A program made the translations under genes and the position numbers. Of a DNA stretch of 56,412 nt, positions 4,815-39,806 are shown one piece after another. This DNA is from an uncultured Candidatus Bathyarchaeia archaeon (lineage in GTDB: Archaea; Thermoproteota; Bathyarchaeia; TCS64): the NCBI GenBank assembly GCA_964513225.1, contig CAZEMD010000001.1:1-56412 (forward strand), read 5' to 3'. Below the pieces are notes generated by a model, which saw only the letters and a program-made list of their open reading frames with translations, did no database searches and was not told where the DNA came from. Each line of letters starts with the position of its first letter. The stretch's first letter is position 1.

Positions 4815-5089
4815 GCTACGATGACGAGATAGCCCCGCTGAGAATAGAGATCGACAGGCTCAACGACGAGATACTGGATAAAATACGTGAACGCGTCGAG
4901 GTCGCGCTCAGGATAGCCGAGGTGAAGAAGAGGCACGGCGTGCCCATAGTGGACCGCGGCCGAGAGGAGAAAGTCCTAGACCACGTGGGCGGCCGGGCGG
5001 CTGAACGGGGACTGGACCCGGCGGCCGTGCGGCGGGTGTTCAGGGAGATCATCGACCTCTGCGTCGAGGCCGAGGAAAAGACACAGTAA
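4811..5089 (+). CDS. chorismate mutase, small AroQ-type
   Basis: A 92-aa all-helical protein with LRIEIDRLNDEILDKIRERVEVALRIAEVKK and a VDRGREEKVL segment. It is the last gene of the operon, with an ATGA overlap with aroC. Confidence 0.75.
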   Translation: MSYDDEIAPLRIEIDRLNDEILDKIRERVEVALRIAEVKKRHGVPIVDRGREEKVLDHVGGRAAERGLDPAAVRRVFREIIDLCVEAEEKTQ

Positions 5090-5168
5090 AAGCCCAGCCA
5101 CGTCTCGTGGATTTTTCAGGTGACTGAACCAATAAACTATGTATTGAAAATAGGGGAGAGGAGGCCCC

Positions 5169-7618: not shown

Positions 7619-7631
7619 GCATTACGCCTCC

Positions 7632-9470
7632 TTATTCGTCCTCCAAGATGGTCTCTGGGTAGGCTTCGAGGTTACTGAACCATTCACGAAGCTTCATGCG
7701 TCGAGCGTCATCTTCCTCCGGAAGATCCACGGGTCTGCCTCTCGCATCGATTAGGATGCCGACTACTCCTCCCTCAACCGTCACGTTGAAGCTTCTTTCG
7801 GCTCCTTCCTTGGTTGAAAGACTGAATGGAGACGAGACCCTTCCCTCTATCTCGGCGGATTTCCCTTCCTCTAACCCGATTTTCTGTATGGTGCCGTACT
7901 CGATTTGTTTCTCCAAGACTTCTCCGTCCGGCATGGTGATTGTCAGGCTGGCGATTTCCTTACCGTAGTCGTCTGGGGTTAACCTGCCGCTGAAACCGAC
8001 GCACGTGCCCAACCTAATCAGGCAGTCTTTTTCGAAGATCTCCAGGGCGGCTTCCCGGTGAACGGTCGAGAGAACGCCCAGGTGGGGGATCATGAAGACG
8101 CTGTCTTGGAATAACTTGGTGACGCCTTCCACGCCGAATCCGTCGATGAGGTTAAGCATGGATTGAACTCTTCTCGGCGCGTGGGAGAGGAGGCCGCCGG
8201 TGCCGCCGACCCACTCGATGTTACTCATGTTGATGTAGGTCCCTGACCTGAGCTGCGAGTCCAGTCTTTCCTCTATGGACTGTTCCCTCTTGGCGCCCAG
8301 GAGCGGCCTGGCTATCAACTTGTGGTGCTCAAGACCCAGTCTAAGGGCTTCTCGTGCGACCGCGTGTTCCACGATGAGCTGTTTGAGAGTGTGGGGTATC
8401 GTGGTGGGCCGGATCATCTTGTTTCTCAGCCTGTCCCGTACGTTGGCCCTGTCTATCTCGAAGGGTATCCACCGCATTATGTTTTCTAGGCCCGTCTCCT
8501 TGAGCACGTTGCATATGCTGTAGCTCATTCCCAGGTTGGCGCTCACGCTGCGGACAAACTTGTTGTCGTAGTGAGAATACACGTTCGTCGTGGCGCCCCC
8601 GAGCCCAACACCTATGAGGTTCGCCTTTTGGGCCTGCGCGAAGGTCCTGAACATGGCGCCCTCTCCGGCGGGGGTCGGCATGATGGGCACGTCGGTCCAT
8701 TTCATCAGCTTGTCGTACCCAGGAGCGTGAGACATGACGTGCTCCATGAACAGCTGGTGTACGGCGCTTCGCGCCGGCTCCGGGTTCTCGATCTCCAGAG
8801 TTGGTCGAATGTTATCGACTATTTGTAGAGCGAACTGTTCACCCAGAAGCTCCTTGATTTGGGGTCTCACGTATTTGTTCCCGGCGTATACGATTGGAAT
8901 CTCGTACATGGCTCCCAAACGGTGTCGCGGACTGGCTGCTTTAATGAACTCGGCTAACTCGACGATGTGTGATACGCTGCCTCCGTCAACCCCCCCGGCT
9001 AAGAGAATCATGTCCGGCCTAAGGAAACGCATTCTCTCTATCTTCTCCCAAGGCTCGCGGCCATCGTCTACGGCTAGAACGTCCATCACTATTGCGCCGG
9101 CTCCCAGGGCGGCTCGTTCAGCGCTCTCGGCCGTCATGGTTCTTATGATCCCCGCAACCTGCATCTGCAGGCCTCCACCAGCGCTGCTGGTGGTGATGTA
9201 GAGATCGACTCCCTCGTCTTCGCCTCGGGTGGGGGTGATTATTCCCTCCGGGGAAAGAAGCTTGTGACCGGTGAGTTCTTCAACCTCCCTGACGGCGTTG
9301 CGGACGCCGAGGGTCACGTCTTCGTAGGGTGCTTCGACGGTTGTCGGGGCTTCACCGCTTGTCACGTATCTATATTCGTCGCCTATCTTTTTGAAAAATC
9401 TAGCCTTACTTGTAGTGCTGCCACAATCAGTTGCTAGAATTACATTAATATCGTTGAGATCCATGGTCAC
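7632..9470 (-). CDS. GlmL/MutL-like ASKHA-fold ATPase (glutamate-mutase accessory protein family)
   Basis: The N-terminal ILATDCGSTTSKARFF phosphate-1 motif, with later SSAGGG and GGTGGLLSH glycine loops, is typical of actin-like ATPases of the GlmL/MutL type. Confidence 0.6.
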   Translation of the reverse strand: MTMDLNDINVILATDCGSTTSKARFFKKIGDEYRYVTSGEAPTTVEAPYEDVTLGVRNAVREVEELTGHKLLSPEGIITPTRGEDEGVDLYITTSSAGGGLQMQVAGIIRTMTAESAERAALGAGAIVMDVLAVDDGREPWEKIERMRFLRPDMILLAGGVDGGSVSHIVELAEFIKAASPRHRLGAMYEIPIVYAGNKYVRPQIKELLGEQFALQIVDNIRPTLEIENPEPARSAVHQLFMEHVMSHAPGYDKLMKWTDVPIMPTPAGEGAMFRTFAQAQKANLIGVGLGGATTNVYSHYDNKFVRSVSANLGMSYSICNVLKETGLENIMRWIPFEIDRANVRDRLRNKMIRPTTIPHTLKQLIVEHAVAREALRLGLEHHKLIARPLLGAKREQSIEERLDSQLRSGTYINMSNIEWVGGTGGLLSHAPRRVQSMLNLIDGFGVEGVTKLFQDSVFMIPHLGVLSTVHREAALEIFEKDCLIRLGTCVGFSGRLTPDDYGKEIASLTITMPDGEVLEKQIEYGTIQKIGLEEGKSAEIEGRVSSPFSLSTKEGAERSFNVTVEGGVVGILIDARGRPVDLPEEDDARRMKLREWFSNLEAYPETILEDE

Positions 9471-9692
9471 GGCAGAGGGTTAAACTAACAATGATATTTA
9501 ACGTTTATTCTCATTGATATACCCATTATATATTATATATTATGTAAATAATCCTCTTTGAGACTGTTATATAATGATGAGTTTAAACATATCTATTATC
9601 TTCATGTATGTTTTTTAATAGTATATGATTTGCATTATTTTTTGATAGTTATATCTTATATTTTGTAAATAATAAAAAAGGAAGAAATGTGG

Positions 9693-10757
9693 CTATTGCT
9701 CGATTACGACCTTGATGGAGTTGGTCTTCTTCTTGTCTGCGGCGGTCTCGAAGGCCTCGTTGATCTTCTCCAACGGGAACTTGTGGGTGATCATCTCCGT
9801 CGCATGAAGCTTACCGGCGATCAACAGATCGGTAACGATCTTGAACTCGGGGTCGTTCTCCCAGTGGTAGAAGCCCGAAACCGGCACCACGTCGATCTCG
9901 CCCCATTGAAGCTTGCGCCAGTCAACCTTTAGCTCCATGTCGGGTCTAAGCGCCCCTATGAGGGCTACCTGGCCCTTCCTCCGCACCATCTCGACGGCTT
10001 GTGGAAGCACCGCCGAGGAGGCCCTGCCGCCTACGCACTCGAACACCTTGTCCGCGCCCATCCCGTCGGTGAGCTCCATGACTCTCTTCACGGGATCGAC
10101 CTTGGTGGAGTTGATCGTCTCGTACGCGCCTATGGTCTTCTCCGCGAACTCCAGAGGGTTGTCTATGACGTCGATTATTATCCCGTTTGCTCCGGCTATG
10201 TTCACCAGGTCCAGTAGGCTGAGCCCGATGGGACCGGCGCCGATGATTACGACGGTCTGGCCCATGTGTGTGTTCGTCCTGTTGATGGCGTGTACGCTTG
10301 TGCCGTAGACGTCCATGATGGCGGCCTCGCCGTATCCGACGTGGTCGGGTATCTTGTACACGTGGTCCGCGGGACCGACGATGTACTCTGAGAAGCCCTG
10401 CGCAAACGTCTCACCCCTGATCTTGAAGCAATCTGGACATAGGTGGTACTGTCCGACTCTGCACCAGTAACACTTCCCGCAACCGATAACGGAGTCTACG
10501 CCCACCCTGTCGCCGACTTTCACGTTCGTCACGTCTTCACCGACGGCGACGATGTCGCCGGCTACCTCGTGGCCAGACATTCTTCCCACAGCCGCTGGGT
10601 TCGGTACTTTCCATGAGTGGAGGTCGCTTCCACAGACCCCGGAGCCCCGTACTTTGACGAGGACGTAGTCGGGCCGTGTGATCTCCGGCATTGGCACTTC
10701 TTTTATCTCGAAGGTTCCTTCAGCGGTTTTAACCGCTGCTTTCCTTGTTTTTGACAA
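9693..10757 (-). CDS. Zn-dependent alcohol/polyol dehydrogenase, paralog 1 of an inverted pair
   Basis: GVCGSDLHSW, GHEVAGDIVAVG, CGKCYWCRVGQYHLC and GAGPIG motifs. It has an apparent TTG start and is near-identical to the 22935-24005 product. Confidence 0.85.
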   Translation of the reverse strand: MSKTRKAAVKTAEGTFEIKEVPMPEITRPDYVLVKVRGSGVCGSDLHSWKVPNPAAVGRMSGHEVAGDIVAVGEDVTNVKVGDRVGVDSVIGCGKCYWCRVGQYHLCPDCFKIRGETFAQGFSEYIVGPADHVYKIPDHVGYGEAAIMDVYGTSVHAINRTNTHMGQTVVIIGAGPIGLSLLDLVNIAGANGIIIDVIDNPLEFAEKTIGAYETINSTKVDPVKRVMELTDGMGADKVFECVGGRASSAVLPQAVEMVRRKGQVALIGALRPDMELKVDWRKLQWGEIDVVPVSGFYHWENDPEFKIVTDLLIAGKLHATEMITHKFPLEKINEAFETAADKKKTNSIKVVIEQ

Positions 10758-10788
10758 ATTTTGTTCGACTACTATAACCCTCTTATGT

Positions 10789-10800
10789 ATATATCTTTAA
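10789..10800 (-). promoter_or_regulatory. candidate TATA box of ADH paralog 1
   Basis: ttaaagatatat on the minus strand lies about 35-40 nt upstream of the start. The same box is conserved upstream of paralog 2. Confidence 0.3.
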
Positions 10801-10955
10801 TGTTATAATCATTTAATAGAGAAAAAACGTTCTTTATTTTTGAAGGTTAATCGTTGTAATCAATAAAAGAAGTAAAATATCAAGAAAAAGAAAAAAACAC
10901 ACATTGTAGGGAAAGTTTATAACATCTTCACGGCGTATGGGTTTGATCCAAGGAA

Positions 10956-11951
10956 ATGAATTTGATGAAAGAAGCGCTTCTCTACGAGAAGAACGACGTG
11001 CGAATCATCGACGTCCCCATCCCAACCATAGGGCCAACGGATATACTGCTGAAGATCAAGGCAGCCAAGATATGTCCCACAGACGTCAGGAAATACAATC
11101 TTGGCTCTAATGATGCGAGGATAAGGTCTCTGCCGATGAACCTGTGCCATGAATACGCCGGAGAGATCGTTGACGTGGGCGAAGAAGTCAAGCATCTCAA
11201 GAAGGGTATGCGGGTGACGGGGTACGGCATGAGAGGCAACGCCGAGTACGTGAAGCTAGACGCAGACAGCTCAAACCCCAACTTAAGGGGCAGGATCCTA
11301 GAGCTTCCTCCAAACGTCTCCTACGAGGAGGGGGCCTTCACCACTCCGTTGTCTGAGTGCATCCACTGCGTCGTTGACCAGGTCGATGTAAGGTTCGGGG
11401 AGACCCTCGTCGTCGTCGGCGCAGGCCACATGGGCATAATGCAGACGAACATAGCCCACTGGTGTGGGGCCACCGTCATCGCGGTTGACCTCAACGACGA
11501 GAGACTGAAGATCGCCAAGGAGTTCGGCGCGGACTATACCATCAACGCGTCGAAGGAAGACGTCGTCGAGAGAGTCAAGGAGCTGACCGACGGCAAGATG
11601 GCTAACTGTTCAATCGCGGGTATCGGGAGTCCCCCAGTCATACAGTCGGCCATCGACGTCACGGGGCACCACGGCCGAATCGTTCTGTGGGGCGGCGCAC
11701 CAACCGGCACGATCATGCAGTTCGACCCCAACGACATCCACTACGCCGAGAAATATCTGATCGGCGTCGAGGGTATAGGCGTGGGGTCTAAGAGACATCC
11801 AGAGAGGAGGGCTCAGGCTGTCCAACACATAGCGAGCGGCAAGATCGATGTGAAGAAACTCATAACCAGGGTCATGCCCATGACGGACATCGTGGAAGCC
11901 TACGAGATGATAAAGAAAGGCGAAGCCATCACCATCGTCATCACCCCTTAA
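10956..11951 (+). CDS. Zn-dependent alcohol/polyol dehydrogenase (MDR superfamily)
   Basis: CPTDVRKY, CHEYAGEIVDVG and GAGHMG Rossmann loop. It is divergent from ADH paralog 1. Confidence 0.82.
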   Translation: MNLMKEALLYEKNDVRIIDVPIPTIGPTDILLKIKAAKICPTDVRKYNLGSNDARIRSLPMNLCHEYAGEIVDVGEEVKHLKKGMRVTGYGMRGNAEYVKLDADSSNPNLRGRILELPPNVSYEEGAFTTPLSECIHCVVDQVDVRFGETLVVVGAGHMGIMQTNIAHWCGATVIAVDLNDERLKIAKEFGADYTINASKEDVVERVKELTDGKMANCSIAGIGSPPVIQSAIDVTGHHGRIVLWGGAPTGTIMQFDPNDIHYAEKYLIGVEGIGVGSKRHPERRAQAVQHIASGKIDVKKLITRVMPMTDIVEAYEMIKKGEAITIVITP

Positions 11952-12080
11952 CCCCGTACTTTTAATTAAACCATTTTTATTTCTCTTGTTAAACGAAACC
12001 AGTGTAAAACGCATCGTTTGGCGCAGCTATAAAGCTAAATACGGACTCCCCGGTAAGTAATAAAAGTCATAATCCAGGGT

Positions 12081-13592
12081 TTGAGGTGTAAAAAACTGAG
12101 TCGTAAGTACTTCCTTGCATGTGACATAGGCACATCCGTCACGAAGAGCGTCCTTTATGACGATGATTTTAAGGCAGTGGCCGGCGCCAGCGAAGAGAAC
12201 GCCGCTTTTCACACAAAGGCGTGCTGGTTAGAAGAAGACCCCAATGAATGGTGGGCCAGCGTGAAAAGAGAAATCGACAAGGTCACCGAGGGGATCGACC
12301 CCAAGGACATCGTCGGTATAGCCACGTGTGCGCAGATGCACGCCCCCATCCTCGTCGACAGGGACGGCAACGCCCTCTACAGGTGCCTGAGCTGGCCCGA
12401 CAGCAGAACCATAAAACTAGTCGAAGAGGTGGCGGAGGGCTCAGGTGTCCCTCAGCCTTACTTCACCTCGACCGCCCCGAAGATCCTCTGGATAAAGAGA
12501 CATTACCCGGAGATACTCGAGAAGACGCACAAGGTGCTGCTGCCCAAGGACTATATCCGCATGAAGCTCAGCGGCACCTTCTGCACCGACCAGAACGACG
12601 CCGGGGGAACGGCGATGTACGACCGGGAGAACGATGCCTGGAACTGGAAGATAGTTGACTACATCGGCCTAGACCATGACAAGCTTCCAGAGGTCTACCC
12701 TTCAGGCGAGGTCGTGGGCGCCGTGACGGAGAAGGCGGCGAAGGAGACCGGGCTCGCGGCCGGCATACCCGTCATCGCGGGCACCGGAGACTTCGGGATA
12801 GGGAGAAGGGTCGAGCGCTCGGGGCTTGAACCGGGGAACATCCTCCTATACCTGGGCACGGGGCCCGGGGTCACGTGGGTGTCCCCCAACGAATCCCATG
12901 GCCGCAGAAACAGAAACAGCAGCTGCATCCTGGGCGTCGCCGGGACCATGCCACAGTGGTTCAAGAACACATTCTGCCAGGAAGACGTGGCCCAGGCCAA
13001 GGAGCAGGGGGTGAACATCTTCGATTATCTGGACTCGAAGGCGGAGAACATCGAACCCGGAGTGGATGGATTGATAGTTCTCCCCCACCTCATGGGCGAG
13101 CGGTCCTACGCGGGTAGGACCATCGGCGAGGAGGGGAGGCTGAACCCGTTCGCCCGCGGCGTGTTCCACGGCCTGTGCATGGGGCACACGCGGTACCACA
13201 TGTTCCGGGCCATACGCGAGGGGATCACCTACCATCTGAGGCTGTGCTGGGAACACATCCAGGAAGCGAACCCGGGCTGCTCCTCGAACCTGATAGTGGC
13301 CACGGGCGGGGGGTCGAACAGCAGGCTCTGGCGGCGGATAATCGCGGACGTCTTCAACCTGCCGGTGTATCGCCTCAAGGAGCTGGAGACGAGCACCCTC
13401 GGGCTGGCGTGCCTCACGTCTGTCAGCATAGGCATGCACGGGAGCTTCGAGGAAGCCGCATCCAAGGTCGAGAACCCCATGATCGACTTGATCCAGCCCA
13501 ACCCAGACAACGCCGCACGGTACACGGAGATGTACCTAAGGTACAAGCGGCTAGAGACAAGCCTCGAACCTTTCTTCCAATCACCTAAATAA
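12081..13592 (+). CDS. FGGY-family carbohydrate kinase (xylulokinase/LsrK-like)
   Basis: N-terminal ACDIGTSVTKSVLYD, a GTGDFG motif and a C-terminal ATGGGSNSRLWRRIIADV motif, with length 503 aa. It has an apparent TTG start. Confidence 0.85.
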   Translation: MRCKKLSRKYFLACDIGTSVTKSVLYDDDFKAVAGASEENAAFHTKACWLEEDPNEWWASVKREIDKVTEGIDPKDIVGIATCAQMHAPILVDRDGNALYRCLSWPDSRTIKLVEEVAEGSGVPQPYFTSTAPKILWIKRHYPEILEKTHKVLLPKDYIRMKLSGTFCTDQNDAGGTAMYDRENDAWNWKIVDYIGLDHDKLPEVYPSGEVVGAVTEKAAKETGLAAGIPVIAGTGDFGIGRRVERSGLEPGNILLYLGTGPGVTWVSPNESHGRRNRNSSCILGVAGTMPQWFKNTFCQEDVAQAKEQGVNIFDYLDSKAENIEPGVDGLIVLPHLMGERSYAGRTIGEEGRLNPFARGVFHGLCMGHTRYHMFRAIREGITYHLRLCWEHIQEANPGCSSNLIVATGGGSNSRLWRRIIADVFNLPVYRLKELETSTLGLACLTSVSIGMHGSFEEAASKVENPMIDLIQPNPDNAARYTEMYLRYKRLETSLEPFFQSPK

Positions 13593-13643
13593 TCTATTAG
13601 TCGCTGAAACTAGGTTTATTAAAAGAAAAAAATTTTTATGAAA

Positions 13644-14390
13644 TTACTTGAGGAGCTTGTAGGCTTCGTCCACCGAAGCCCCTTCGTGCACGATCTTGCA
13701 GAAGGCCTGTGTGATGGCTTTCGGGTCCTTGTGCTGGAAGACGTTCCTGCCCATGCAGGTGCCTGCTCCTCCGGCGTCGATGGCCCCTTTCACTACTTCG
13801 AGCACGTCGCAGTCGCTGTCCATCTTGGCTCCCCCCAGAATGACTATGGGGATTGGACACGTTTCGACCACCTTCTTGAAGGACTCGACGCTTCCGGTGT
13901 AGGCCGTCTTTATGAAGTCTCCTCCGTTTTCCTGTCCCAGCCGTGCCGCGTTTCTGACCTGATCGTAGATTGTGCTGCGGTTCTCGTCCTGGGGTACGAC
14001 CTCAGGCATGAACACTATGCCGTAGTCCTCACAGGCGGCGGCGATGGGTTGAACCATCTCTAGGTTTGGTGACCTCAATCCACCGAAGTGGGTGTACTTC
14101 AGGCCGTCGGCTCCAGCCTTGGCAGCCTCCCTGACGAACTCCACGCGCTGCGGAGACGGGATACCCACGATGTACCCTAGGTCCCTCGGCAGATCTTTCG
14201 CGTGGGTCAGCATGTTACCATAACTCAAGAGGATAGCGTCGGCGCCACCTTCGGCTACCTTGTTCACGGTAGCGACGTAGTCCTCTAATCCTGGGGCTAC
14301 ACCCCTCGTGCTGTGGTCCATGGCTACGATGACGGCTTTCCCATCTTTCCGGAAGATGTGGTTCCATCTAATCTCTTTTCCTGCGTTCAT
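13644..14390 (-). CDS. class I aldolase of the DhnA/FbaB/LsrF family
   Basis: GKAVIVAMDH, GADAILL, GGDFIKTAYTG (Schiff-base Lys context) and GRNVFQH motifs, with length 248 aa. Confidence 0.8.
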   Translation of the reverse strand: MNAGKEIRWNHIFRKDGKAVIVAMDHSTRGVAPGLEDYVATVNKVAEGGADAILLSYGNMLTHAKDLPRDLGYIVGIPSPQRVEFVREAAKAGADGLKYTHFGGLRSPNLEMVQPIAAACEDYGIVFMPEVVPQDENRSTIYDQVRNAARLGQENGGDFIKTAYTGSVESFKKVVETCPIPIVILGGAKMDSDCDVLEVVKGAIDAGGAGTCMGRNVFQHKDPKAITQAFCKIVHEGASVDEAYKLLK

Positions 14391-14553
14391 TTAATATTTC
14401 ATCCCGGAGGGGATACAAGAAGGAAGAAATCAAATAAACCTTGTGGTAGGCGTGTTCTGGATTGATTTATCCGTGCAATCACCATTTTTTACCTGCATTA
14501 TAAGGCAAATGTAACATTTTTAACAGAAATATCTGAAAGAGAAAAAGAGCAGA

Positions 14554-15417
14554 TCATGTGGCCTGAAGAGTTTGAAGTACTCCCTCTAGCTCCGTATGAG
14601 AGACGACTCTCGACAAGGGACTCATCGTAAACACGAACTCCCTGACACCGCGTCTAGCCAGCTGGGTCATCGTTTTCCTGTCCGGGTCAGCCAGCTTATA
14701 GACGGTGTTTCCGTGTAGGTACATGCCTATGTCCAGCAACTCGTTGTCCATGGAGTATGCCTTGGTGTAGCACGGCCTGGAACAATGGTCGAGGTCCTCC
14801 TCGCCCAGGAAACGCGCCGTATGGCATTTACGTGTTATCGCCACGGGAACCGAGTACAGGTGAACAGATACCTGGAGGTTTCTCTGGGTGAGGGGTCTGA
14901 GGTTGTTGAATATCTCGGGTATCCAGTCCATGTCGGCGCCGACGACCCCGAGGCCCTTGAAGAACTCCAGCGTCGGCTCATAGTTCAGGCTGGTCTGGTA
15001 GAATATCCGTTTTACTTTTCGCTTCGCGAAATAGCTCACCGGGTGCTCGGTTATCTCCTTCCAGGGGCACCTCGAAGGCGTGTAAACCAGCTGTCTGCCG
15101 AGATGAGGCGTGAGAGAGGGATACTCCCTCAGGACGCTCAAGGTTCCCAGGTCGTTCACCACGACGGTGGCGCCTCCCAGGTCGTCCAGTAGGCTCAGGT
15201 GCTCCCGTATCTTGTCCATGTAGCCGTCGGCGAGCCGGGGGGTCACGTAGGCGAAGTCCTTGCCCGCGTCTCTTGTGCTTGTGTACGCCGTCTCCAGGGC
15301 AGATGCGCTTGGGAGGGCGTACATGCAGAACTCCGAGCCGAAACGCATCTTCTTGCTATCGGAGGCGAGGGCCTCCCTCAGCAACGGAAGGTTCCCGGTC
15401 TGGATGGCTACGTTCAT
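14554..15417 (-). CDS. peptidase-U32-family protein, small UbiV-like subunit (pair A)
   Basis: The true start is MNVAIQTGN at 15417, a 1-nt overlap with the upstream stop. The tracked ORF extension to 15843 is an out-of-frame Arg-rich artefact. The Cys pattern is FGSEFC ... CHTARFLGEEDLDHCSRPC. It is a paralog of 17665-18534. Confidence 0.75.
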   Translation of the reverse strand: MNVAIQTGNLPLLREALASDSKKMRFGSEFCMYALPSASALETAYTSTRDAGKDFAYVTPRLADGYMDKIREHLSLLDDLGGATVVVNDLGTLSVLREYPSLTPHLGRQLVYTPSRCPWKEITEHPVSYFAKRKVKRIFYQTSLNYEPTLEFFKGLGVVGADMDWIPEIFNNLRPLTQRNLQVSVHLYSVPVAITRKCHTARFLGEEDLDHCSRPCYTKAYSMDNELLDIGMYLHGNTVYKLADPDRKTMTQLARRGVREFVFTMSPLSRVVSHTELEGVLQTLQAT

Positions 15418-16487
15418 CACATGTTCACCCAGCTGAAGTGCTGCTTGGTCCACGTCTGCCACGTTAATGGTTTCTTGTACGGCGCCTGCGCGATGGGGCT
15501 GTAGTAGCATCTGTTCTGGTAGCACCATATGTCTTTCAGCTTGTAGAAGTCCGACGGTACGGGGAGGAAGTATATACCGTTCTTCAACTCCTCCAGCTGA
15601 TCCCTGTACTCGTCGATGCTTCCGGAGGCGATCAGGTCCAGTAGCTCGCGGTAGACCCTGGTGGTGGCTTCCTGGTACCAGACGCTCCCCGTCCGTCCTT
15701 CTATCTTTACACCCGCTACGCCAGTATCGATGATCTCGAGTAGGTTGCACACGGAGCAGTACTCGAAGGCGTCCATCACGGGTATATCTTCGCTGACGTC
15801 TTGAGGGTCGTTTAGGTTCTGTAGGCGGAAGGGCAGCGCGCATGGGGTGGAGGTGTTGGAGGCGCGCTGTGCTTCTATGAGTTCAGGGAACTGGTGATGG
15901 TAGAGGTAACAGCTCGCGTTTATGTTCGAGCAGCCGCCGCCGTGTATCAATATCTCTATATCCATCTCTGTGCTTCCCACTATGCGTTTTATCTCGTCGA
16001 AGGTGAGATGCCTCTCAAGGACGGCTCTGCTGTATCCCTGCTCCTCCAGGAACCTCACCGCCTCGCTGTTCATGGAGACGAGATAGGTGCTGGCGATGAG
16101 GGGGACCTCCACGTTCAATTTTCTTATGTTGTGGAGGATGCCGAAATCTCCGACGATCAAGGCATCGACGCCCTGGTCTACGCAGCTGCGAACGTGGTTT
16201 CTTATGTGTTTCTCGGTCTCATGCACCATGTACGGGTGGTTTAACACCAGGTCTACCTTGGCGCCGTGGTCGTGGGCGTATTTCACCACCAGGCCCAGTT
16301 CCTCGTAGCTCGGTATTTGAGAAGACGGGCCCCTGTAGAGGACGAAGTCCTTTATGTCGGGTATCTGAACGGCGCAGTAGACCTCGTCGGCTCCCGCGTC
16401 CACCACCTTGACTCCGCCTTCGTAGGAGTTTATGGGCGCCATGATGTTTGGTATGCTCTTGTTTTCCTCGGAGTTAGGTGGACTCAT
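15417..16487 (-). CDS. peptidase-U32-family protein, large UbiU-like subunit (pair A)
   Basis: U32 N-terminus MAPINSYEGGVKVVDAGADEVYC and VKYAHDHGAKVDLVLN. The Cys cluster is GGCSNINASC ... PCALP ... YCSVC. It is a paralog of 16598-17668. Confidence 0.8.
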   Translation of the reverse strand: MSPPNSEENKSIPNIMAPINSYEGGVKVVDAGADEVYCAVQIPDIKDFVLYRGPSSQIPSYEELGLVVKYAHDHGAKVDLVLNHPYMVHETEKHIRNHVRSCVDQGVDALIVGDFGILHNIRKLNVEVPLIASTYLVSMNSEAVRFLEEQGYSRAVLERHLTFDEIKRIVGSTEMDIEILIHGGGCSNINASCYLYHHQFPELIEAQRASNTSTPCALPFRLQNLNDPQDVSEDIPVMDAFEYCSVCNLLEIIDTGVAGVKIEGRTGSVWYQEATTRVYRELLDLIASGSIDEYRDQLEELKNGIYFLPVPSDFYKLKDIWCYQNRCYYSPIAQAPYKKPLTWQTWTKQHFSWVNM

Positions 16488-16554
16488 TTCAAATTAGAGG
16501 GTTATCCTTCTAATATAAATCTGAGCAATCACGTCAGCCAGGCCGTTTAACTGA

Positions 16555-16568
16555 AGGTATATACCTTA
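16555..16568. promoter_or_regulatory. perfect 14-nt palindrome AAGGTATATACCTT in the divergent U32 promoter region
   Basis: The palindrome was read directly. It is centred about 36 nt upstream of the ATG at 16598. A second TATA-like box, taatataaat at 16513-16522, faces the minus-strand gene. Confidence 0.35.
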
Positions 16569-16597
16569 AATCCAATCAACTACCTAAGGAACTTATC

Positions 16598-17668
16598 ATG
16601 GACGCCGTCGATGAGACCGTTGTACCCAAGATACTGGCCCCCATAAAGGCTTACACCGGGGCAGTAAGAGTCGTGGACGCTGGCGCGGACGAGATATACT
16701 GCGGCGTCAGGACTCCCGGCCTGGAAGACTTCGAGCTCTACCGCGGCGCATCCACCGAGATACCCACGTACGACGAGTTCCATAAGGTAACGGAGTACGC
16801 GCACAGCCACGGCGTCGAGGTGTTGGTGACCATCAACCAGCCCTTCATTTTAGACTCCATGGAGAAAACGATGGTTAAACACATCCGGGAATGCGTGGAG
16901 GCCGGGGTGGACAGCTTCATCATCGGCGACTTGGGGATGCTTCAGCTGGTGAAAGAGGTCACTGAGGACGTGGGGCTCTGCGCAAGCACGTACCTTTCCG
17001 CGACCAACCGGGAGGCGGCCAGGTTCTTGGAACGCGCCGGCTTTTCCCGCGTCGTCCTCGAGAGGCAAGTGCCCCTCGAACAGATCGCCGAGATAGCGAG
17101 GGACGTTGACGTCGAGGTGGAGGCGTTCGTTCACGGCTCAGGGTGCTCCAACATAAACGTCAACTGCTATTTCTATCACTACAAGTTCCCAGCCATGGAC
17201 CAGGCGTACCTCGGCGTAGACGGGATCAAGTTCCCGTGTTCTCTCCCGTACGAGGTCTATGACGGGGAGGATGAAGGGGTCTATCTTGGCACCTACCCCA
17301 TACTGGATGCCTACACCTTCTGTTCACTCTGCAAGCTCCCAGCCCTCATCCAATCAGGAGTATACGGCTTGAAGATAGAAGGTAGAGGCATAAACGAGGA
17401 GTACCAGGCATCGACCACCAGGCTATACAGAGAAGCCCTCGACCTGCTACGACAAGACGATGAAGAGGGGTTCCAGCGGATGCTTGAAACCATCAAGGAG
17501 TCATTCGTCCCGTTGCCCCAGACCCTTCCCATGAACAACCTCCAGGAACTCTGCTGTGAACAGGGAAGATGCTACTACGCGCCAAAGTTCCATGCCCCCT
17601 ACAAGGAGAAACTGGCCTGGCAGGCGTGGACCAAGCTCCAATGTAAACTCCTAGTGGTCCAGCCATGA
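16598..17668 (+). CDS. peptidase-U32-family protein, large UbiU-like subunit (pair B)
   Basis: LAPIKAYTGAVRVVDAGADEIYC and TEYAHSHGVEVLVTIN. The Cys cluster is GSGCSNINVNC ... PCSLP ... FCSLC. Confidence 0.8.
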   Translation: MDAVDETVVPKILAPIKAYTGAVRVVDAGADEIYCGVRTPGLEDFELYRGASTEIPTYDEFHKVTEYAHSHGVEVLVTINQPFILDSMEKTMVKHIRECVEAGVDSFIIGDLGMLQLVKEVTEDVGLCASTYLSATNREAARFLERAGFSRVVLERQVPLEQIAEIARDVDVEVEAFVHGSGCSNINVNCYFYHYKFPAMDQAYLGVDGIKFPCSLPYEVYDGEDEGVYLGTYPILDAYTFCSLCKLPALIQSGVYGLKIEGRGINEEYQASTTRLYREALDLLRQDDEEGFQRMLETIKESFVPLPQTLPMNNLQELCCEQGRCYYAPKFHAPYKEKLAWQAWTKLQCKLLVVQP

Positions 17669-18534
17669 AATACACAGTACACGCAGAGACGTTAACCGCG
17701 CTCAGGGAAGCCTTGGCCAGCGGGTGCACCGGCGTCCGTTTCGGCCCAGAGTTCTGCGAGTGGAAGATACCGAGTCAAGAACACCTTAGACAGGCGTACG
17801 AAGAGGCGAAGGACGCAGGGAAAGATTTCACATATGTATTGCCTATTCTCTCGAACCCGGGTATCGAGAAAATGGTTGAACAGCTCGGCTTCCTCGGAAA
17901 ACTCGGTGGCGTTGAGGTAGTGGTCGGTGATCTGGGTGCCTTGAACCTGCTACGAGGTCAGGAAGGCGTAAAGCCGCGTCTTGGCAGGCCCAGAGTCTAT
18001 ATCCCCGCCAGGAGCCCCTGGTCACAGATAACACGGATGCCGGACCCCGGCTTCTTCACCAGACGTAGGGTTGAGAAACTATTTTACCAGACCAGTCTGA
18101 ACTACGTTCGATCCCTAGAATATTTTAAGAGCCTGGGAGTCATGGGTGCGGACGTCGATTGGATTCCCAAGTGCTTCCCAAGCTATAAAAAGATAATAAG
18201 AAGCGGGTTGAAACTCGCCGTCCACTCCCACGCCATACCCGTCGCGGTGACCATGAGGTGCCACATGGCTCGTTTCCTGGGCGAGGAGGAGCCGGCGCTC
18301 TGCTCAAAACCCTGCCTCACCAAGGCCTTCATGATCAAGCAAAAAGAGTTAGAGAAGACCTTCACCCTTCATGGAAACGTCGTCTTTCGGCTCGTAGAAT
18401 CCAGTCAAAGGGAAACAAAGCAGCTCACGAGAATGGGTGTCGATGAGGTGGTTATCCCAATGGGGCCCGTGTCAAACCTGTTCACCAGAAACGATCTTGA
18501 CGAGGCTGTGGCTACTTTGTCGGGTGGGGTTTAA
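17665..18534 (+). CDS. peptidase-U32-family protein, small UbiV-like subunit (pair B)
   Basis: ATGA overlap with the upstream gene. The Cys pattern is FGPEFC ... CHMARFLGEEEPALCSKPC. It is a paralog of 14554-15417. Confidence 0.75.
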   Translation: MKYTVHAETLTALREALASGCTGVRFGPEFCEWKIPSQEHLRQAYEEAKDAGKDFTYVLPILSNPGIEKMVEQLGFLGKLGGVEVVVGDLGALNLLRGQEGVKPRLGRPRVYIPARSPWSQITRMPDPGFFTRRRVEKLFYQTSLNYVRSLEYFKSLGVMGADVDWIPKCFPSYKKIIRSGLKLAVHSHAIPVAVTMRCHMARFLGEEEPALCSKPCLTKAFMIKQKELEKTFTLHGNVVFRLVESSQRETKQLTRMGVDEVVIPMGPVSNLFTRNDLDEAVATLSGGV

Positions 18535-18919
18535 CCTTCTCGACTTCTTCGTTGCTCACGGCCAAGAACCCGTGGAGAAGCTTGAACTCCACCTTATGGA
18601 TCTTGCCGTCCTTGATCATGTAGGTGCTCTCGCATGGGAGCCAGCCTTTCCTACCCTGCGCCGTCAGAAACGCTATCATGAACTCGTGCTTCGCCGTCGA
18701 TTCATCTACTTCAAATTTTTTTTCCTTGAAGGAAATGAAGGGGAACAACTCAAAGAACTCGCTTGCCCAGGTCAGGATGCTCTCCTTTCCTACAAAATCA
18801 TAGGGTCCCCAGGAGAGCGATGCTCCATCAGAGAATAACCCCCGGATCTCATCTAAGTTTTTTAGGGTTAACGCTTGATAAAAGCCGTAAATAATCTCTT
18901 TGACTCCCTTCTCCAACAT
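18512..18919 (-). CDS. NTF2/SnoaL-like fold protein (putative small isomerase/cyclase-like)
   Basis: A 135-aa protein beginning VKEIIYGFYQALTLKNLDEIRGLFSDGASL, the typical opening of SnoaL/DUF4440-like proteins. It converges on and overlaps the U32 small-subunit gene by 23 nt. Confidence 0.5.
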   Translation of the reverse strand: MLEKGVKEIIYGFYQALTLKNLDEIRGLFSDGASLSWGPYDFVGKESILTWASEFFELFPFISFKEKKFEVDESTAKHEFMIAFLTAQGRKGWLPCESTYMIKDGKIHKVEFKLLHGFLAVSNEEVEKVKPHPTK

Positions 18920-18933
18920 TTATACTTGACCAC

Positions 18934-19335
18934 TCATGACTCCTTATAATCTGGGCGTTTAAATAAACTACGGAGCCAAGAGGAAAAACCGGTGAACCAC
19001 CCCTCTTTCTTAGGCATATGCTTTTCCAGTTCTCGTTGCCTTTGCTTTGTTTTCTTCTTCTCCATTGCCAGTTCTTCGATTCTTTCCTGCAAACGCTTGG
19101 CGTTTATCCCGTAGTTGAAACCCAGCATCTTCACGAAATCTCCGCCCGATCTAGAGAACAGGGTCACGGCAAGGGGGTAGGACATCATGATCCCCAGTTC
19201 TCCAACGACATCACCAAACGGGGCGGTGCCTTCTAGGGCTATTATCGCTAGGTCCTCAAGATCCTGTTTGACTATGTATTGAGCCGCCTGATCTATGAGT
19301 TGCTCCTCGCGCTCAGGGGATATTTCTCCAGACAT
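18934..19335 (-). CDS. small protein E1 of the membrane module (hypothetical)
   Basis: A 133-aa protein with an acidic N-terminus, a hydrophobic core and a Lys/Arg/Glu-rich C-terminal helix. It is alignable with the 42102-42464 product (E..D..I...A..I.K.D..L.AI..LE...P...V.G.L). Confidence 0.6.
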   Translation of the reverse strand: MSGEISPEREEQLIDQAAQYIVKQDLEDLAIIALEGTAPFGDVVGELGIMMSYPLAVTLFSRSGGDFVKMLGFNYGINAKRLQERIEELAMEKKKTKQRQRELEKHMPKKEGWFTGFSSWLRSLFKRPDYKES

Positions 19336-19589
19336 TCTCAGTGATTCAATTCCTGTACACCTTGGATCGTAATAAAGATTGATGGTTTAGTAAGTTAAAA
19401 CATCCTTTTTTTAAATATATATTTACCGTGAGAAACAAACTGCACTAAAAAACAATAACTTAAAACATCAAAAACCATTGACACTTTAATGCCTTTAATG
19501 CAGAAAAACGTTATATAATCAATTATTTCATTTAGTGGGGAAATGCATGTGCATCATGCATTTGAAAAGAAAAACTGAGTGAAAAAAAA

Positions 19590-20351
19590 ATGGCAATAGT
19601 AAGACTGGACATTCTAATTGTATTCGTCGGATCTTTCGCAACACTACTGATCTCATCCTTCGTCCTTAGAGGGGTGAAGCTACGCATGATACCCACCGTG
19701 GAGGCTTCGATCGAAGCCGTCAGGGTGGCTACTGAGAAAGGGACGCCTGTCTTGTTCGACACTGGATGGACCGGCGCCAACTTCTGGGGGAACTCAACTG
19801 GTTTGACAACTCTCTGCTTCGTACCAGCCACTCTCGAACTGCTGAAGGCCATGTCGGTCGAGGCAGGGCGCCTCGATGTCAGAATCATCACCGGCACCAG
19901 AAACCCTGTTTATGCATTGATGTCCCGTGACTTCATGGAGGCAGGATACGCCATGAGTGGGCATCCTGATAGGTTTAATCCAGACGACATCAACTTCTAC
20001 CCTGATAACACCGCGCTCATCATATCAGACGTGGAGTTAGTTCACAGACACAACATCGGAGCCGCTGTGATGATCGGGGGGCACAGCCAGACCTCTAACA
20101 TCGTCGTCTACGAGGCATTAGCCACGACGGGGGCGATGCTCGTCGCAGGAGAGATATGGCCCAACGACAACTCGATGGCGGCCCTCTGCGCCGACTATCT
20201 AAGCTTCGCAGAAGAAAACGTAGCCATAGGCGCGTATCTAACCGAAGACCCTGTACCAAAGGCGATCCTAGCAGGGGAAGACCTCATCAAAGGCTTCCTG
20301 ATCGCGGTGGTAATACTAGGCGGCGCGCTCTTCAGCTTGGGGGTACTCTAA
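19590..20351 (+). CDS. membrane module subunit A1 (hypothetical; TM at both ends, central about 200-aa domain)
   Basis: Hydrophobic N-terminal LDILIVFVGSFATLLISSFVL and C-terminal LIKGFLIAVVILGGALFSLGVL. It is a paralog of 38991-39797, with shared ...LCADY/ICDY..(E)E..A.GAY..EDP... segments. Confidence 0.7.
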   Translation: MAIVRLDILIVFVGSFATLLISSFVLRGVKLRMIPTVEASIEAVRVATEKGTPVLFDTGWTGANFWGNSTGLTTLCFVPATLELLKAMSVEAGRLDVRIITGTRNPVYALMSRDFMEAGYAMSGHPDRFNPDDINFYPDNTALIISDVELVHRHNIGAAVMIGGHSQTSNIVVYEALATTGAMLVAGEIWPNDNSMAALCADYLSFAEENVAIGAYLTEDPVPKAILAGEDLIKGFLIAVVILGGALFSLGVL

Positions 20352-20990
20352 ATGGTGGAACAAGATCAATCGATCTCTAGTCAGATCATGGCTAACCTTC
20401 CCACGGTGTTGGGCGTCATTTGCATGTTCATAATCTCTACTCTTTACTTCATGGTCCCTGGTTGGAACTTCGCCATATTCATAAGGAACTCCACCACTCT
20501 GTCTCTCCCGTGGCCAGCCGCCATAGTATCAGTGCTGCTTGTACGGAAACATATCAACAACATACTCAAGAAAGAGTCCACCCTGCCCTACGACGTCATA
20601 GTCGTTGGTTCAGCAGTGATAATAGTCCTACTTGGGCTAATCGGTGGAACCAATGAACCAACCTTCAAAACACTATACGAGAACATCAACATAATCGGGA
20701 CGATGTCGATAACATCGGCGATCGCTATCAGCATATTCTCGCCGATGATACGAATATACCGCGCTAAGACACCCACAATGGCTCTGCTGATTGGGTTGAG
20801 CTGCCTGGCGTTCGCGACATACACGCCTCTCGGCCAGATGATACACCCGATCATTCCCCAAATGGGAGACTTCGTACAATCATACATCTCGGGCGCATCT
20901 GACTCTGCGTTCTGGATAAGCACGTACATCGGAGCCATCGCTCTGTTGACTCGAATGATTCTGCTAAAGGAGAAGCTGAAGCCAGGTTAG
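20352..20990 (+). CDS. membrane module subunit B1 (hypothetical polytopic membrane protein)
   Basis: Its start directly follows the A1 stop. It has about 6 hydrophobic segments and is a paralog of 39807-40460 (shared Y.N....G......A..I.S...R..RA motif). Confidence 0.7.
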   Translation: MVEQDQSISSQIMANLPTVLGVICMFIISTLYFMVPGWNFAIFIRNSTTLSLPWPAAIVSVLLVRKHINNILKKESTLPYDVIVVGSAVIIVLLGLIGGTNEPTFKTLYENINIIGTMSITSAIAISIFSPMIRIYRAKTPTMALLIGLSCLAFATYTPLGQMIHPIIPQMGDFVQSYISGASDSAFWISTYIGAIALLTRMILLKEKLKPG

Positions 20991-20995
20991 GAGGA

Positions 20996-21880
20996 ATGAA
21001 AATGAGCAGTTTAAATCTAAGTGATAAACGCTGGATCTACATCCTGATATTCGCCATCATCACCATCTCATCGATAGCGCCCGTAGCGTTCCCCCTGCCA
21101 ATAATGCAGTGGAGCAGAGACTTCTACAGCACGATTGACGAAGGCGTGGTCGTGGACTTCGCCGACCCTCCAAGAAACTTTGAGGGGGTAACCGAAGGTA
21201 CACGCGTCATGATCCTTTGTAGCGGAGAGGTCGATAAGCTCTGGGGAGACATGAGTGAGGCTGTGACAGTCGTCTGGAAGGACCTCAAGTCCAGAGGGGC
21301 AAACATACTCCTTTGGACATCGAGCCCAAGCAACGAAGCCACACTAAACAAGTATCTCCTACCGCTGATGTACGGCCCACGGCCCCAGGATCACCCAGAC
21401 TACGGCGTCAAGTTTGTTAACCTAGGCTACGTCGCCGGAGGAAACGGACTCCTCGAACAGTGGAAGGACTCCGTCGTGGCGATAACACCAAACGATGCCT
21501 ACGGAAACAATCTTGCAGACCTACCTATGATGGAAACCTTCGATGAGCTAAAGGCCGAATGTGACCTCATGATAGGACTGGACGCCCGTGGCTTGGAGAC
21601 GATATACGTGGTACGTTTCAACACACCGCTGTTGGAGATGGGAGGAACAGACTCCGCTTCATACCTGGCGCTGAGCTACACCGCAGGATACTTCAAAGGT
21701 ATGCTGATGGGTCAGAGAGGCGGCGCCGAGTATGAGCTACTGTCTGGCATCCCAGGCAAGTCTTTCGCATATCTGCAGAACGCGCTGACAATAGGGATAG
21801 TAATGATCGCGCTAATGATTGTAATGAACGTCAGATGGTATCTAACCAAGGAGTCCCAAGTATCGGAGGGGGTAAGCTAA
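20996..21880 (+). CDS. membrane module subunit C1 (hypothetical; TM at both ends, central soluble domain)
   Basis: N-terminal WIYILIFAIITISSIAPVAF and C-terminal LTIGIVMIALMIVMNV hydrophobic segments. It is a paralog of 40462-41301 (shared NLGY(V/I)AGG and GGAEYE(L/Y)L.G.PG motifs). Confidence 0.7.
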   Translation: MKMSSLNLSDKRWIYILIFAIITISSIAPVAFPLPIMQWSRDFYSTIDEGVVVDFADPPRNFEGVTEGTRVMILCSGEVDKLWGDMSEAVTVVWKDLKSRGANILLWTSSPSNEATLNKYLLPLMYGPRPQDHPDYGVKFVNLGYVAGGNGLLEQWKDSVVAITPNDAYGNNLADLPMMETFDELKAECDLMIGLDARGLETIYVVRFNTPLLEMGGTDSASYLALSYTAGYFKGMLMGQRGGAEYELLSGIPGKSFAYLQNALTIGIVMIALMIVMNVRWYLTKESQVSEGVS

Positions 21881-22594
21881 ATGGCGTCACCAATTGAACC
21901 ACTTATGCCCTACCTGAACACCTTCATATTCTTCGCAGCCTACACCGTGCTGTACAAGCACAACCCGGTGTATCGTATAGCGCAGAGCCTCATAGTAGGC
22001 GTAGGCGCTGGATATCTCTTCGTGTCGCAAATCAACGCCTTCAACAGGACCGTAGCCTCGCAGACCTTCGTAGACGGACAATTAAACGCATCTATGATAG
22101 CGCCCTGGATCATCGGTATAGGTTACCTGGCGATCTTCTCACAGAAGACCATCAACATCTACAGGTTCATGTCGATACTGACTTTAACGGTCGGTATGGG
22201 TGTGGCTTTACCGTATGGTCCAGCCGTGTTCTGGACAGTTACGAAGTCGTACGCAGAAAACGCGTTCAACTTCATAACCGACGGAATATCAGTGGCGTCC
22301 ATAGGCGCCGTGGTGACTGCCTTGAGCTACATCTTTGGTCTCAGCTACTTCTTCTTCTCGGACTTCGCTTCGAAGCCCACGGAAGTACCTAGAAAACTAG
22401 GTCGTATAGTGCTGCTGATCTACACGGCCATGACCATCGTGACGACGGCGCTGGGCAAGGTCAACCTCGTACAGTGGAAGATGCTTGACGCTATTCAAGG
22501 TGTTCCCGCTACTTGGTGGATACCTGCGCTGATGTTCGTAGCGATGCTCGTAGACCACTTCTACCCGCTGAAAAACCTGATCTCACGAAACTAG
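21881..22594 (+). CDS. membrane module subunit D1 (hypothetical polytopic membrane protein)
   Basis: Its start abuts the C1 stop. It has multiple hydrophobic segments and is a paralog of 41298-41978 (shared AY.VL...NP..RI.......G...GY.F). Confidence 0.7.
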   Translation: MASPIEPLMPYLNTFIFFAAYTVLYKHNPVYRIAQSLIVGVGAGYLFVSQINAFNRTVASQTFVDGQLNASMIAPWIIGIGYLAIFSQKTINIYRFMSILTLTVGMGVALPYGPAVFWTVTKSYAENAFNFITDGISVASIGAVVTALSYIFGLSYFFFSDFASKPTEVPRKLGRIVLLIYTAMTIVTTALGKVNLVQWKMLDAIQGVPATWWIPALMFVAMLVDHFYPLKNLISRN

Positions 22595-29940: not shown

Positions 29941-29993
29941 CGATGCAATACCTATGGACGGCGGTCCGGGAAAAACCTGTTGATCGGGCGCGC

Positions 29994-30755: not shown

Positions 30756-30936
30756 CGTGATGCATGTGATGGTTGGCTGGGAAGGGTTTACGTTTTTCTA
30801 TATGTGCGTGGGTGGCGGCGCCGGCGTTCACATGTTGGGCAAGAGATGGGGTGGGATAAACACTACACGTTATACGGCCTGGGCTAAACCGGGACAAATC
30901 CTAAAAATCGAAGAAATATGCGAGGAAGAACACTGT

Positions 30937-34437: not shown

Positions 34438-34566
34438 CGGGCATCTAAAGCATGTTTAGTTAAAACTTAATAGATCTTTCTATCAAACCTGTCTAAAACA
34501 CTGGTCACGCAACAACACACGTAATTGGGAAAGTTTTATAATATACGTTTTTATTTAAAAAGTAAA

Positions 34567-39797: not shown

Positions 39798-39806
39798 GTG
39801 AGATGA

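Follow-up and report, generated by a model that had tools for sequence, protein, structure and literature searches.

Two divergent gene pairs on a Bathyarchaeia contig encode candidate two-subunit Fe-S proteins of the U32 family

Two pairs of genes related to the peptidase U32 family lie back to back on contig CAZEMD010000001.1 of an uncultured Candidatus Bathyarchaeia archaeon (assembly GCA_964513225.1); positions 1 to 56,412 of this contig were analysed and are called the window here. The pairs are transcribed away from each other, and each consists of a gene for a large subunit (L) followed by a gene for a small, UbiV-like subunit (S). On the minus strand, L1 (15417-16487) encodes a protein of 356 amino acids (aa) with a PF01136 domain and an E-x7-C-x6-C core, and S1 (14554-15417) encodes 287 aa. 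On the plus strand, L2 (16598-17668) likewise encodes a PF01136 protein of 356 aa, and S2 (17665-18534) encodes 289 aa. The junction of L1 and S1 (...AACATGTGATGAAC...) reads TGATG, so that the start codon of S1 shares 1 nucleotide (nt) with the stop codon of L1. The junction of L2 and S2 (...CCATGAAATAC...) reads ATGA, an overlap of 4 nt. In the list of open reading frames (ORFs) the frame of S1 is open as far as 15843, and the ATG at 15417 was taken as its start on the basis of the alignments and of the 286-289 aa typical of the family. The two arms are separated by 110 bp (16488-16597), judged from the sequence to be a probable shared promoter region, with two AT-rich TATA-like boxes, one per arm, about 25-35 nt from each start codon.

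L1 and L2 were 42% identical, and S1 and S2 were 44-45% identical. Neither L nor S showed a signal peptide or a hydrophobic N-terminus on inspection of the sequences. A preliminary description of this locus had reported two divergent arms, each with a 356-aa U32 protein, a 287- or 289-aa partner and overlaps of 1 and 4 nt, and the ORFs agreed with it. The motifs it quoted were also found, namely GGCSNINASC, PCALP and YCSVC in L1, GSGCSNINVNC, PCSLP and FCSLC in L2, FGSEFC with CHTARFLGEEDLDHCSRPC in S1, and FGPEFC with CHMARFLGEEEPALCSKPC in S2.

L1 and L2 matched Pfam family PF01136 with 135.5 bits (E = 2.2e-39) and 156.4 bits (E = 9.6e-46), respectively, against a cutoff of 22.4 bits. These matches are far beyond chance, and L is a bona fide PF01136 protein. 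PF01136 was the sole Pfam domain in L, with no C-terminal U32_C or DUF3656 domain. None of the curated NCBIfam models claimed L1 or L2: the best match was UbiU (NF047963), with 93.5 bits for L1 and 111.7 bits for L2, both under the cutoff of 440, and the TrhP model gave 82-88 bits and did not reach its cutoff of 534. When profiles were compared with hhalign, L scored 214 with RlhA, 193 with TrhP and 146 with UbiU. Because RlhA and TrhP outrank UbiU in this comparison, L is, as judged from sequence profiles, a distinct U32 subfamily and not an ortholog of UbiU. Orthology with UbiU had been considered on the strength of the best NCBIfam match, and it was rejected given the hhalign ranking and the lack of two of the UbiU cluster ligands. 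The AlphaFold2 model of L2 had a mean predicted local distance difference test (pLDDT) score of 85.9, and its top fold match was the U32 structure 5d88 (E = 5.6e-8, root-mean-square deviation 4.0 Å, 183 columns). Searching the sequences of the Protein Data Bank (PDB) with L2 gave no useful match.

The residues E175, C183 and C190 were invariant in 75 L sequences and aligned with E162, C170 and C177 of TrhP. This glutamate and the two cysteines of the CX6C motif are essential in TrhP, and their counterparts are essential in RlhA too (PMC6599085). Eight cysteines were conserved in 119 family members, C35, C183, C190, C214, C242, C245, C320 and C325, of which seven were invariant and C35 was present in 98%. 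They follow the pattern CX6C…C…CX2C…CX4C. The conserved cysteines would suffice for a second metal site in L, and the extra ones suggest a path for electrons over three centres in the L-S pair that is absent from UbiU-UbiV.

The small subunit is predicted to be a strongly diverged U32-like TIM (triosephosphate isomerase) barrel with a UbiV-type site of four cysteines, CXnCX13CX3C. The predicted model of S2 was a TIM barrel with a pLDDT of 92.7, and, of its ten fold matches with the lowest E-values, 5d88 had the best TMq. The match of S1 to PRK15447, a UbiV-like model, was weak (16.6 bits, E = 0.004) and S2 had none; the equivalog cutoffs for UbiV (275 bits for NF047965 and 283 bits for PRK15447) were thus not reached. 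About a quarter of the close homologs of S carry a precomputed PF01136 match, and the S family aligned with the L family over 67 columns with a probability of 87.8% in hhalign. A PDB sequence search with S2 gave no useful match.

Exactly four cysteines were invariant in the 116 sequences of the S family: C31, C199, C213 and C217 (in S1, C31, C198, C212 and C216). UbiV was the best match of S among the four E. coli U32 proteins in the profile comparison. The hhalign alignment paired the four cysteines with C39, C180, C193 and C197 of E. coli UbiV, the spacing in S being one residue longer. These UbiV residues are the experimentally defined ligands of its [4Fe-4S] cluster (PMC6747719). Both S and UbiV have a proline where canonical U32 proteins have the first cysteine of CX6C. 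In an exhaustive HMMER search with S among 1.84 billion representatives, the numbers of S-like proteins within E-value limits of 1e-30, 1e-10 and 1e-3 were 25, 591 and 1253, respectively. In an alignment of 98 sequences, made up of S2, E. coli UbiV and 96 distant HMMER matches, only G27, C31, G107, C199, C213 and C217 were invariant, and the NCBIfam UbiV models recognised just 5 of the 98. A MAFFT alignment of three sequences (S and UbiV) had placed the N-terminal cysteine wrongly and was overruled by the profile alignment and the 98-sequence alignment. The preliminary description had called the subunits UbiU-like and UbiV-like and expected their cysteines to align with the cluster ligands of both proteins. 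For S this was borne out by all four residues. For L it was borne out only by half: C169 and C176 of the four UbiU ligands were matched, RlhA and TrhP scored higher than UbiU, and the extra set of cysteines is absent from UbiU.

We gathered 116 related loci from species-representative genomes and metagenomes and labelled them L001 and so on. In 74 cases the sequence reached far enough upstream of S, and in 73 of these S was directly preceded by L on the same strand; the usual junction in the family was an ATGA overlap. The single real exception was an orphan S-like gene (277 aa, at 3817-4650 of L017) that has no L partner and is directly upstream of co-directional genes for a GlmL-like protein and p392, both described below. 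The genome with this orphan carries four other L-S loci. L proteins and their S partners showed correlated pairwise distances (r = 0.77, compared with at most 0.14 in 200 shuffles), and this does not reflect species phylogeny only, because there are several paralogous pairs per genome. The L and S genes are translationally coupled and have been inherited and duplicated as a unit throughout the Bathyarchaeia. The large-then-small arrangement is the same as that of ubiU-ubiV, as the preliminary description had pointed out. A physical heterodimer of L and S is very likely, to judge from the adjacency of the genes, their overlaps, the correlated distances, the gene order of ubiU-ubiV and the same order in remote pairs. 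That this heterodimer carries Fe-S clusters is also held with considerable confidence. Natural fusions of L with S were looked for, and none was found.

Nearly all loci belonged to Bathyarchaeia, and two were labelled Anaerolineae. The complete 1.98-Mb Bathyarchaeota chromosome CP070659.1 contained five L-S loci. A tree of S comprised an S2-type clade, an S1-type clade and several further clades. The head-to-head double pair was limited to one subgroup, consisting of the window and loci L001, L005, L009, L010, L015, L024 and L049. Nothing relevant was found in the literature on U32 proteins in Bathyarchaeota, on DUF6754 or on U32 proteins in biosynthetic clusters.

Remote relatives of the pairs were found outside this group. 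All remote S-like genes with upstream sequence follow a PF01136 gene of 312-319 aa (L123-L127). Four of these loci (L123, L124, L125 and L127) are bacterial metagenome contigs, and L126 is from Nanoarchaeota. The remote bacterial pairs, found in Clostridia-type loci that resemble natural-product clusters, share with the archaeal ones the order of a PF01136 gene and then an S-like gene as well as the L-type and S-type sets of cysteines. Seven of the eight L cysteines recur in them (CX6C…C…DCxxC…FCx4C), the four S-type cysteines are kept, and two or three pairs often occur per locus. They differ in that identity is only about 20-25%, L is shorter and has no C35, and there is no NTF2-like partner. 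Their neighbours are AMP-binding, ThiF, CN hydrolase, Amidohydro_2, radical SAM (S-adenosylmethionine) and DeoC plus DHQS-II genes, and not sugar kinases or transporters. The pair of DeoC and DHQS-II genes resembles GriI and GriH, the makers of 3-amino-4-hydroxybenzoate. S-like domains were also found fused to class I SAM methyltransferases (P0459, P0472 and P0534) and to glycosyltransferases of families 2 and 1 (GT2 and GT1; P0535). A Ruminiclostridium hungatei protein is among the members of the cluster of P0477, which is L125's S-like gene. The fusions and the biosynthetic-looking loci fit a logic of hydroxylation followed by decoration of small molecules, for proteins only about 20-25% identical to S.

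The genes next to the pairs were compared by clustering all ORFs of the loci, and Pfam names were assigned to the recurrent clusters only. The commonest partner was a gene for an NTF2/SnoaL_2-like protein, which in 45 of 101 pairs was the next gene after S, usually in convergent orientation. In the window it encodes 135 aa (18512-18919, minus strand; PF12680, E = 4e-7) and is convergent with S2; a PDB sequence search with this SnoaL-like protein gave no useful match. A DhnA/DeoC-type class I aldolase gene (13644-14390, minus strand; 248 aa, PF01791) is downstream of L1-S1 and co-directional with it. Such an aldolase was directly downstream of S in 13 of the 101 pairs, all in the S1-type clade. 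Its nearest NCBIfam model was ADH synthase, with 211 bits, below the cutoff of 241. Pair 1 is also associated with an FGGY-family sugar kinase (12081-13592, plus strand; 503 aa, FGGY_N and FGGY_C), which is xylulokinase-like (306 bits against a cutoff of 380) and recurs beside S1-type pairs, for example in L014, L016, L019, L079 and L100. The window further holds four Zn-dependent dehydrogenases of the polyol/threonine-dehydrogenase type. In other clades the order DUF6785 > L > S > SnoaL < GH42 β-galactosidase < SIS > ROK kinase > MacB/FtsX-like permease < was observed. Genes for GFO/IDH/MocA oxidoreductases, xylose-isomerase-like, URO-D-like, corrinoid and B12-radical-SAM proteins were also recurrent near the pairs, and major facilitator superfamily (MFS) transporter genes were among the neighbours.

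UbiT-like (SCP2), ubiquinone, prenyltransferase and RNA-modification genes did not occur among the neighbour clusters that recur in the 116 loci; only those clusters had Pfam names, and rare cases could escape. The FGGY kinase, aldolase, dehydrogenases and NTF2-like protein named in the preliminary description were all present, and the linkage of homologs to quinone or RNA-modification genes, which would have spoken against its proposal, did not appear as a recurrent feature. Its proposal of a small-molecule context was supported by the carbohydrate-type enzymes and transporters around the homologs; as to the sugar kinase and aldolase, these are tied to the pair-1 clade only. The gene context supports action on small molecules over action on quinones or RNA.

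The window begins with a shikimate operon (1-5089) in the order truncated aroB, aroD, aroE, aroK, aroA, aroC and chorismate mutase. It ends with a stand-alone chorismate mutase gene (4811-5089, plus strand; CM_2, E = 2e-23), whose product might supply prephenate. The chorismate-to-prephenate operon noted in the preliminary description therefore exists, with its aroB truncated. It is 9.5-14.5 kb from the pairs, which is beyond the span of most compared loci. In L011, an aro operon (6839-10837; a 275-aa gene, aroB, aroD, aroE and aroK) directly follows the cluster of U32 genes and the membrane genes M1-M4 described below. Its proteins were about 48% identical to those of the window (1-2460), compared with 62-81% for the genes of the U32 cluster, and the two aro operons may be of different origin. 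The two occurrences of aro genes beside the cluster are a lead rather than evidence, and a link to prephenate is speculative. Use of prephenate by the L-S pairs, as suggested by analogy, is possible but doubtful.

Further genes adjoin the pairs without appearing to belong to the enzyme. The gene p133 (18934-19335, minus strand) had no Pfam or NCBIfam match and was recurrent near S2-type pairs. Four membrane proteins, M1-M4, are encoded at 19590-22594 on the plus strand; M1 is a DUF6754 protein, and M2-M4 had no Pfam or NCBIfam match. On the minus strand on the other side of the pairs are a GlmL/MutL-like ASKHA ATPase gene (7632-9470; PF13941 and NCBIfam GlmL-family matches) and p392 (6440-7618; no Pfam or NCBIfam match). 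PDB sequence searches with p392 and the GlmL-like protein gave no useful match. p133 and M1-M4 adjoined S2-type pairs in about 20 loci, and the GlmL-like gene was co-directional with L-S, in an apparent operon, in L018 and L020. In this module p133 is 120-133 aa long and p392 is 376-392 aa long, and the GlmL-like ATPase and p392 are often present. A second copy of M1-M4 and p133 is present in the window at 38991-42464 without a U32 gene, and L121 contains two copies of the whole module (M1-M4, p133, GlmL-like and p392; 8164-21131), again with no U32 gene. For p392 at least 7992 homolog clusters were counted, compared with 129 for S. Given this number and the standalone copies in L121 and at 38991-42464, p133 with M1-M4 and the GlmL-like gene with p392 were rejected as parts of the U32 system. 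These genes are probably separate from the enzyme and represent a widespread independent module of Bathyarchaeia. That the module is an ATP-driven transporter is a guess.

Other features of the window were recorded. Its G+C content is strongly mosaic, with 0.63-0.66 at 1-6000 (the shikimate operon), 26000-32000 (a block of chelatase, phosphoglycerate kinase and glyceraldehyde-3-phosphate dehydrogenase genes) and 52000-56000 (the right end), 0.51-0.58 in the U32 island and 0.44-0.48 at about 34-40 kb. At the chelatase block this mosaic is no assembly chimera, because the block adjoins the island in L001 and L009 too. Three AAA+ chelatase-like genes of the ChlI/ChlD type, one of them encoding a VWA domain, lie in tandem at 25417-30147 on the minus strand, and their best NCBIfam match was 'putative cobaltochelatase', under its cutoff. 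Genes related to B12 were seen near U32 pairs elsewhere, encoding corrinoid, B12-radical SAM, URO-D-like and GlmL-like proteins. A low-G+C stretch (33800-37300) contains an intact ParB-like gene (34525-35322) and two diverged partial copies, at 36744-37043 (68% over 300 nt) and at 33807-33863 (57 nt, inverted, 96%), which a mobile or plasmid-derived element may have left behind. tRNA genes and Rfam families at the gathering threshold were sought in the whole window, and none was found.

Our explanation is that each arm encodes a two-subunit Fe-S oxidoreductase of the U32 family, probably an O2-independent hydroxylase of a soluble metabolite, and we lean towards it by a modest degree. L and S would form a heterodimer like UbiU-UbiV. 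One [4Fe-4S] cluster would be bound in S and one in L, on C183, C190, C214 and one cysteine of the CX2C motif; the remaining conserved cysteines of L (of CX2C, CX4C and C35) might provide a second metal site. The clusters are envisaged to take electrons away from a substrate held in the barrel of L. By analogy with the three characterised U32 systems, the most likely reaction would be a hydroxylation or oxidation without O2, for which prephenate might donate the oxygen. Judging from the neighbouring genes, the candidate substrate would be a soluble metabolite derived from carbohydrate or related to shikimate, rather than a quinone or RNA. The NTF2-like protein beside pair 2 is probably its working partner, either binding the substrate or serving as a second catalytic component, and pair 1 is operonic with the DhnA-type aldolase and lies beside the FGGY kinase. 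The L-S pairs would form a branch of two-subunit Fe-S U32 enzymes that has not been described previously. For the pairs as a whole, the analogy gives about an even chance that they are hydroxylases or oxidases of soluble metabolites.

Several observations weigh against this explanation. L does not show the canonical four-cysteine motif CX6CX15CX3/4C but has CX6CX23C: its C214 aligned with the fourth cysteine of CX6CX15CX3C in RlhA and TrhP, and the third canonical cysteine is missing. The UbiU ligands C193 and C232 had no aligned cysteine in L, where only C169 and C176 were matched. C242, C245, C320 and C325 may substitute for the missing canonical cysteine; with two UbiU ligands matched and no third canonical cysteine, cluster ligation in L is a guess. 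As to S, a Pfam search with S1 and S2 gave no match, the subunit being under the Pfam and NCBIfam thresholds, and the hhalign alignment of the S family with E. coli UbiV covered 192 columns with E = 0.0035 and a probability of only 9%. In some clades (L003, L004, L035 and L036) the neighbours are unrelated or housekeeping genes, and the sugar genes differ from clade to clade, so that no single pathway can be read from them. The branch is known so far from sequences and predicted models alone, and even TrhP and RlhA still await a direct demonstration of hydroxylase activity in vitro (PMC6599085).

The same genes and cysteines could be read in other ways. The consistent presence of carbohydrate-type genes nearby would also suit non-hydroxylating Fe-S enzymes of sugar or sugar-phosphate metabolism, for example dehydratases, isomerases or reductive dehydroxylases like IspG and IspH, with an open-iron cluster in L. 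The seven or eight conserved cysteines of L could give one fully ligated and one three-cysteine cluster, and sugar epimerases and isomerases are among the PDB fold matches of S, at TM-scores of only about 0.36. However, these matches are those of a generic TIM barrel, dehydratase or isomerase activity is known for no U32 protein, and all U32 proteins with a genetically assigned function are tied to hydroxylation. We therefore regard such an enzyme as rather unlikely. Hydroxylation itself might serve a membrane lipid or quinone, as in UbiU-UbiV, with the NTF2-like protein as a UbiT-like lipid-binding accessory and M1-M4 as part of the machinery. The UbiV-like nature of S and the membrane proteins beside S2-type pairs are in line with this, as are an HMG-CoA (3-hydroxy-3-methylglutaryl-CoA) reductase gene that lies close to the pair in L003 and, independently, in L004, and a polyprenyl synthase gene beside the remote pair of L127. 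The recurrent neighbours in the 116 loci, however, include no prenyltransferase, UbiE/UbiG-type or SCP2 gene, and the membrane module also stands alone without U32 genes. Five L-S loci of varied context in a small genome ill suit one housekeeping lipid step, and a role of this kind is improbable.

RNA is the substrate of other U32 proteins, and the pairs might be archaeal counterparts of TrhP1/TrhP2 or RlhA that make 5-hydroxyuridine (ho5U) or 5-hydroxycytidine (ho5C). The profile of L scores highest against RlhA and TrhP, B. subtilis has the tandem U32 pair TrhP1/TrhP2 (PMC6599085), and the pairs of the L003 clade and of the nanoarchaeal L126 lie among translation-related genes. Set against this, U32_C and DUF3656 are absent from L, trhP orthologs have been reported only in bacteria (PMC6599085), the pairs are multi-copy per genome, and the genes that recur beside the pairs in the 116 loci serve metabolism and transport and not RNA modification. 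RNA hydroxylation is accordingly given little credence. Least of all do we expect true, collagenase-like peptidases, which the family name and the database labels would imply. The Joint Genome Institute (JGI) labels homologs 'putative protease' or 'collagenase-like PrtC family protease', M14, M28 and TldD/PmbA peptidase genes occur near some related modules, and reports of collagenolytic activity of PrtC and HP0169 are cited in PMC5727448. In the same paper, proteolysis by U32 proteins is described as having no known catalytic mechanism. The invariant cysteines align with proven Fe-S ligands, and, as noted above, neither subunit has a signal peptide or a hydrophobic N-terminus.

Insertion of oxygen into organic molecules without O2 is rare and poorly understood, and the latest enzymes proposed to carry it out are the U32 proteins. 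Bathyarchaeia are among the most abundant uncultured lineages of anoxic sediments. The present analysis places a distinct two-subunit branch of U32 proteins in this group, where it is multi-copy and lies within substrate-utilisation loci. If hydroxylation or oxidation of soluble metabolites by the L-S pairs is true, U32 chemistry reaches from the maturation of cofactors and RNA to carbon turnover, and the soluble substrates might allow the in-vitro assay that is still missing in the field. Part of the metagenomic 'collagenase/peptidase U32' counts, which have been read as protein degradation by Bathyarchaeia, would then need re-annotation. A wider and more tentative proposal, which we offer as a conjecture with more doubt than confidence, is that Bathyarchaeia possess multi-copy, prephenate-dependent, O2-independent hydroxylases which, together with an NTF2-like protein, act on soluble substrates derived from sugars or shikimate. 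No earlier U32 hydroxylase would then be known from Archaea or from catabolism, and the pairs would represent the archaeal part of a large and so far unrecognised superfamily of two-subunit U32 proteins (L-type CX6C…C…CX2C…CX4C with UbiV-like S-type) that also equips natural-product clusters of anaerobic bacteria.

To our knowledge, only UbiUV, TrhP and RlhA have assigned roles among U32 proteins; these three come from bacteria, and in vitro reconstitution has been achieved for none of them. We also know of only one solved U32 structure, that of Methanopyrus kandleri Mk0906 (5D88), and of no function or partner subunit for it. Mk0906 is an archaeal U32 TIM barrel like the proteins described here, with a sequence identity of only 15-16%. 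E. coli RlhA and TrhP, which are single-chain, prephenate-dependent RNA hydroxylation factors, have PF01136, the glutamate and CX6C in common with L. In contrast to them, L has no DUF3656 or U32_C domain, lacks the third canonical cysteine and has a separate small subunit. B. subtilis TrhP1/TrhP2 (YrrO/YrrN) are tandem U32 paralogs in one operon that always co-occur and are both needed for ho5U34 in tRNA (PMC6599085). Tandem genes for U32 or U32-like proteins are common to TrhP1/TrhP2 and L-S. Unlike L, TrhP1 has a TrhP-type C-terminal domain, a tRNA substrate and an operon with the methyltransferase TrmR; S is UbiV-like and probably not TrhP2-like.

The E. coli pair UbiU-UbiV (YhbU-YhbV), which hydroxylates ubiquinone independently of O2, is also encoded by adjacent, co-directional genes with the large subunit first, of 331 and 292 aa compared with 356 and 287-289 aa here. 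UbiV and S share a distal first cysteine followed by CX12-13CX3C, and UbiU and L share CX6C (C169 and C176 of UbiU). L has no counterpart of C193 and C232 of UbiU and has C214, CX2C, CX4C and C35 instead. In contrast to UbiU-UbiV, the pairs described here have no UbiT, SCP2 or ubi genes among their recurrent neighbours; they are archaeal, a single genome can hold as many as five L-S loci, and they lie among sugar-type genes, with an NTF2-like protein as their usual partner.

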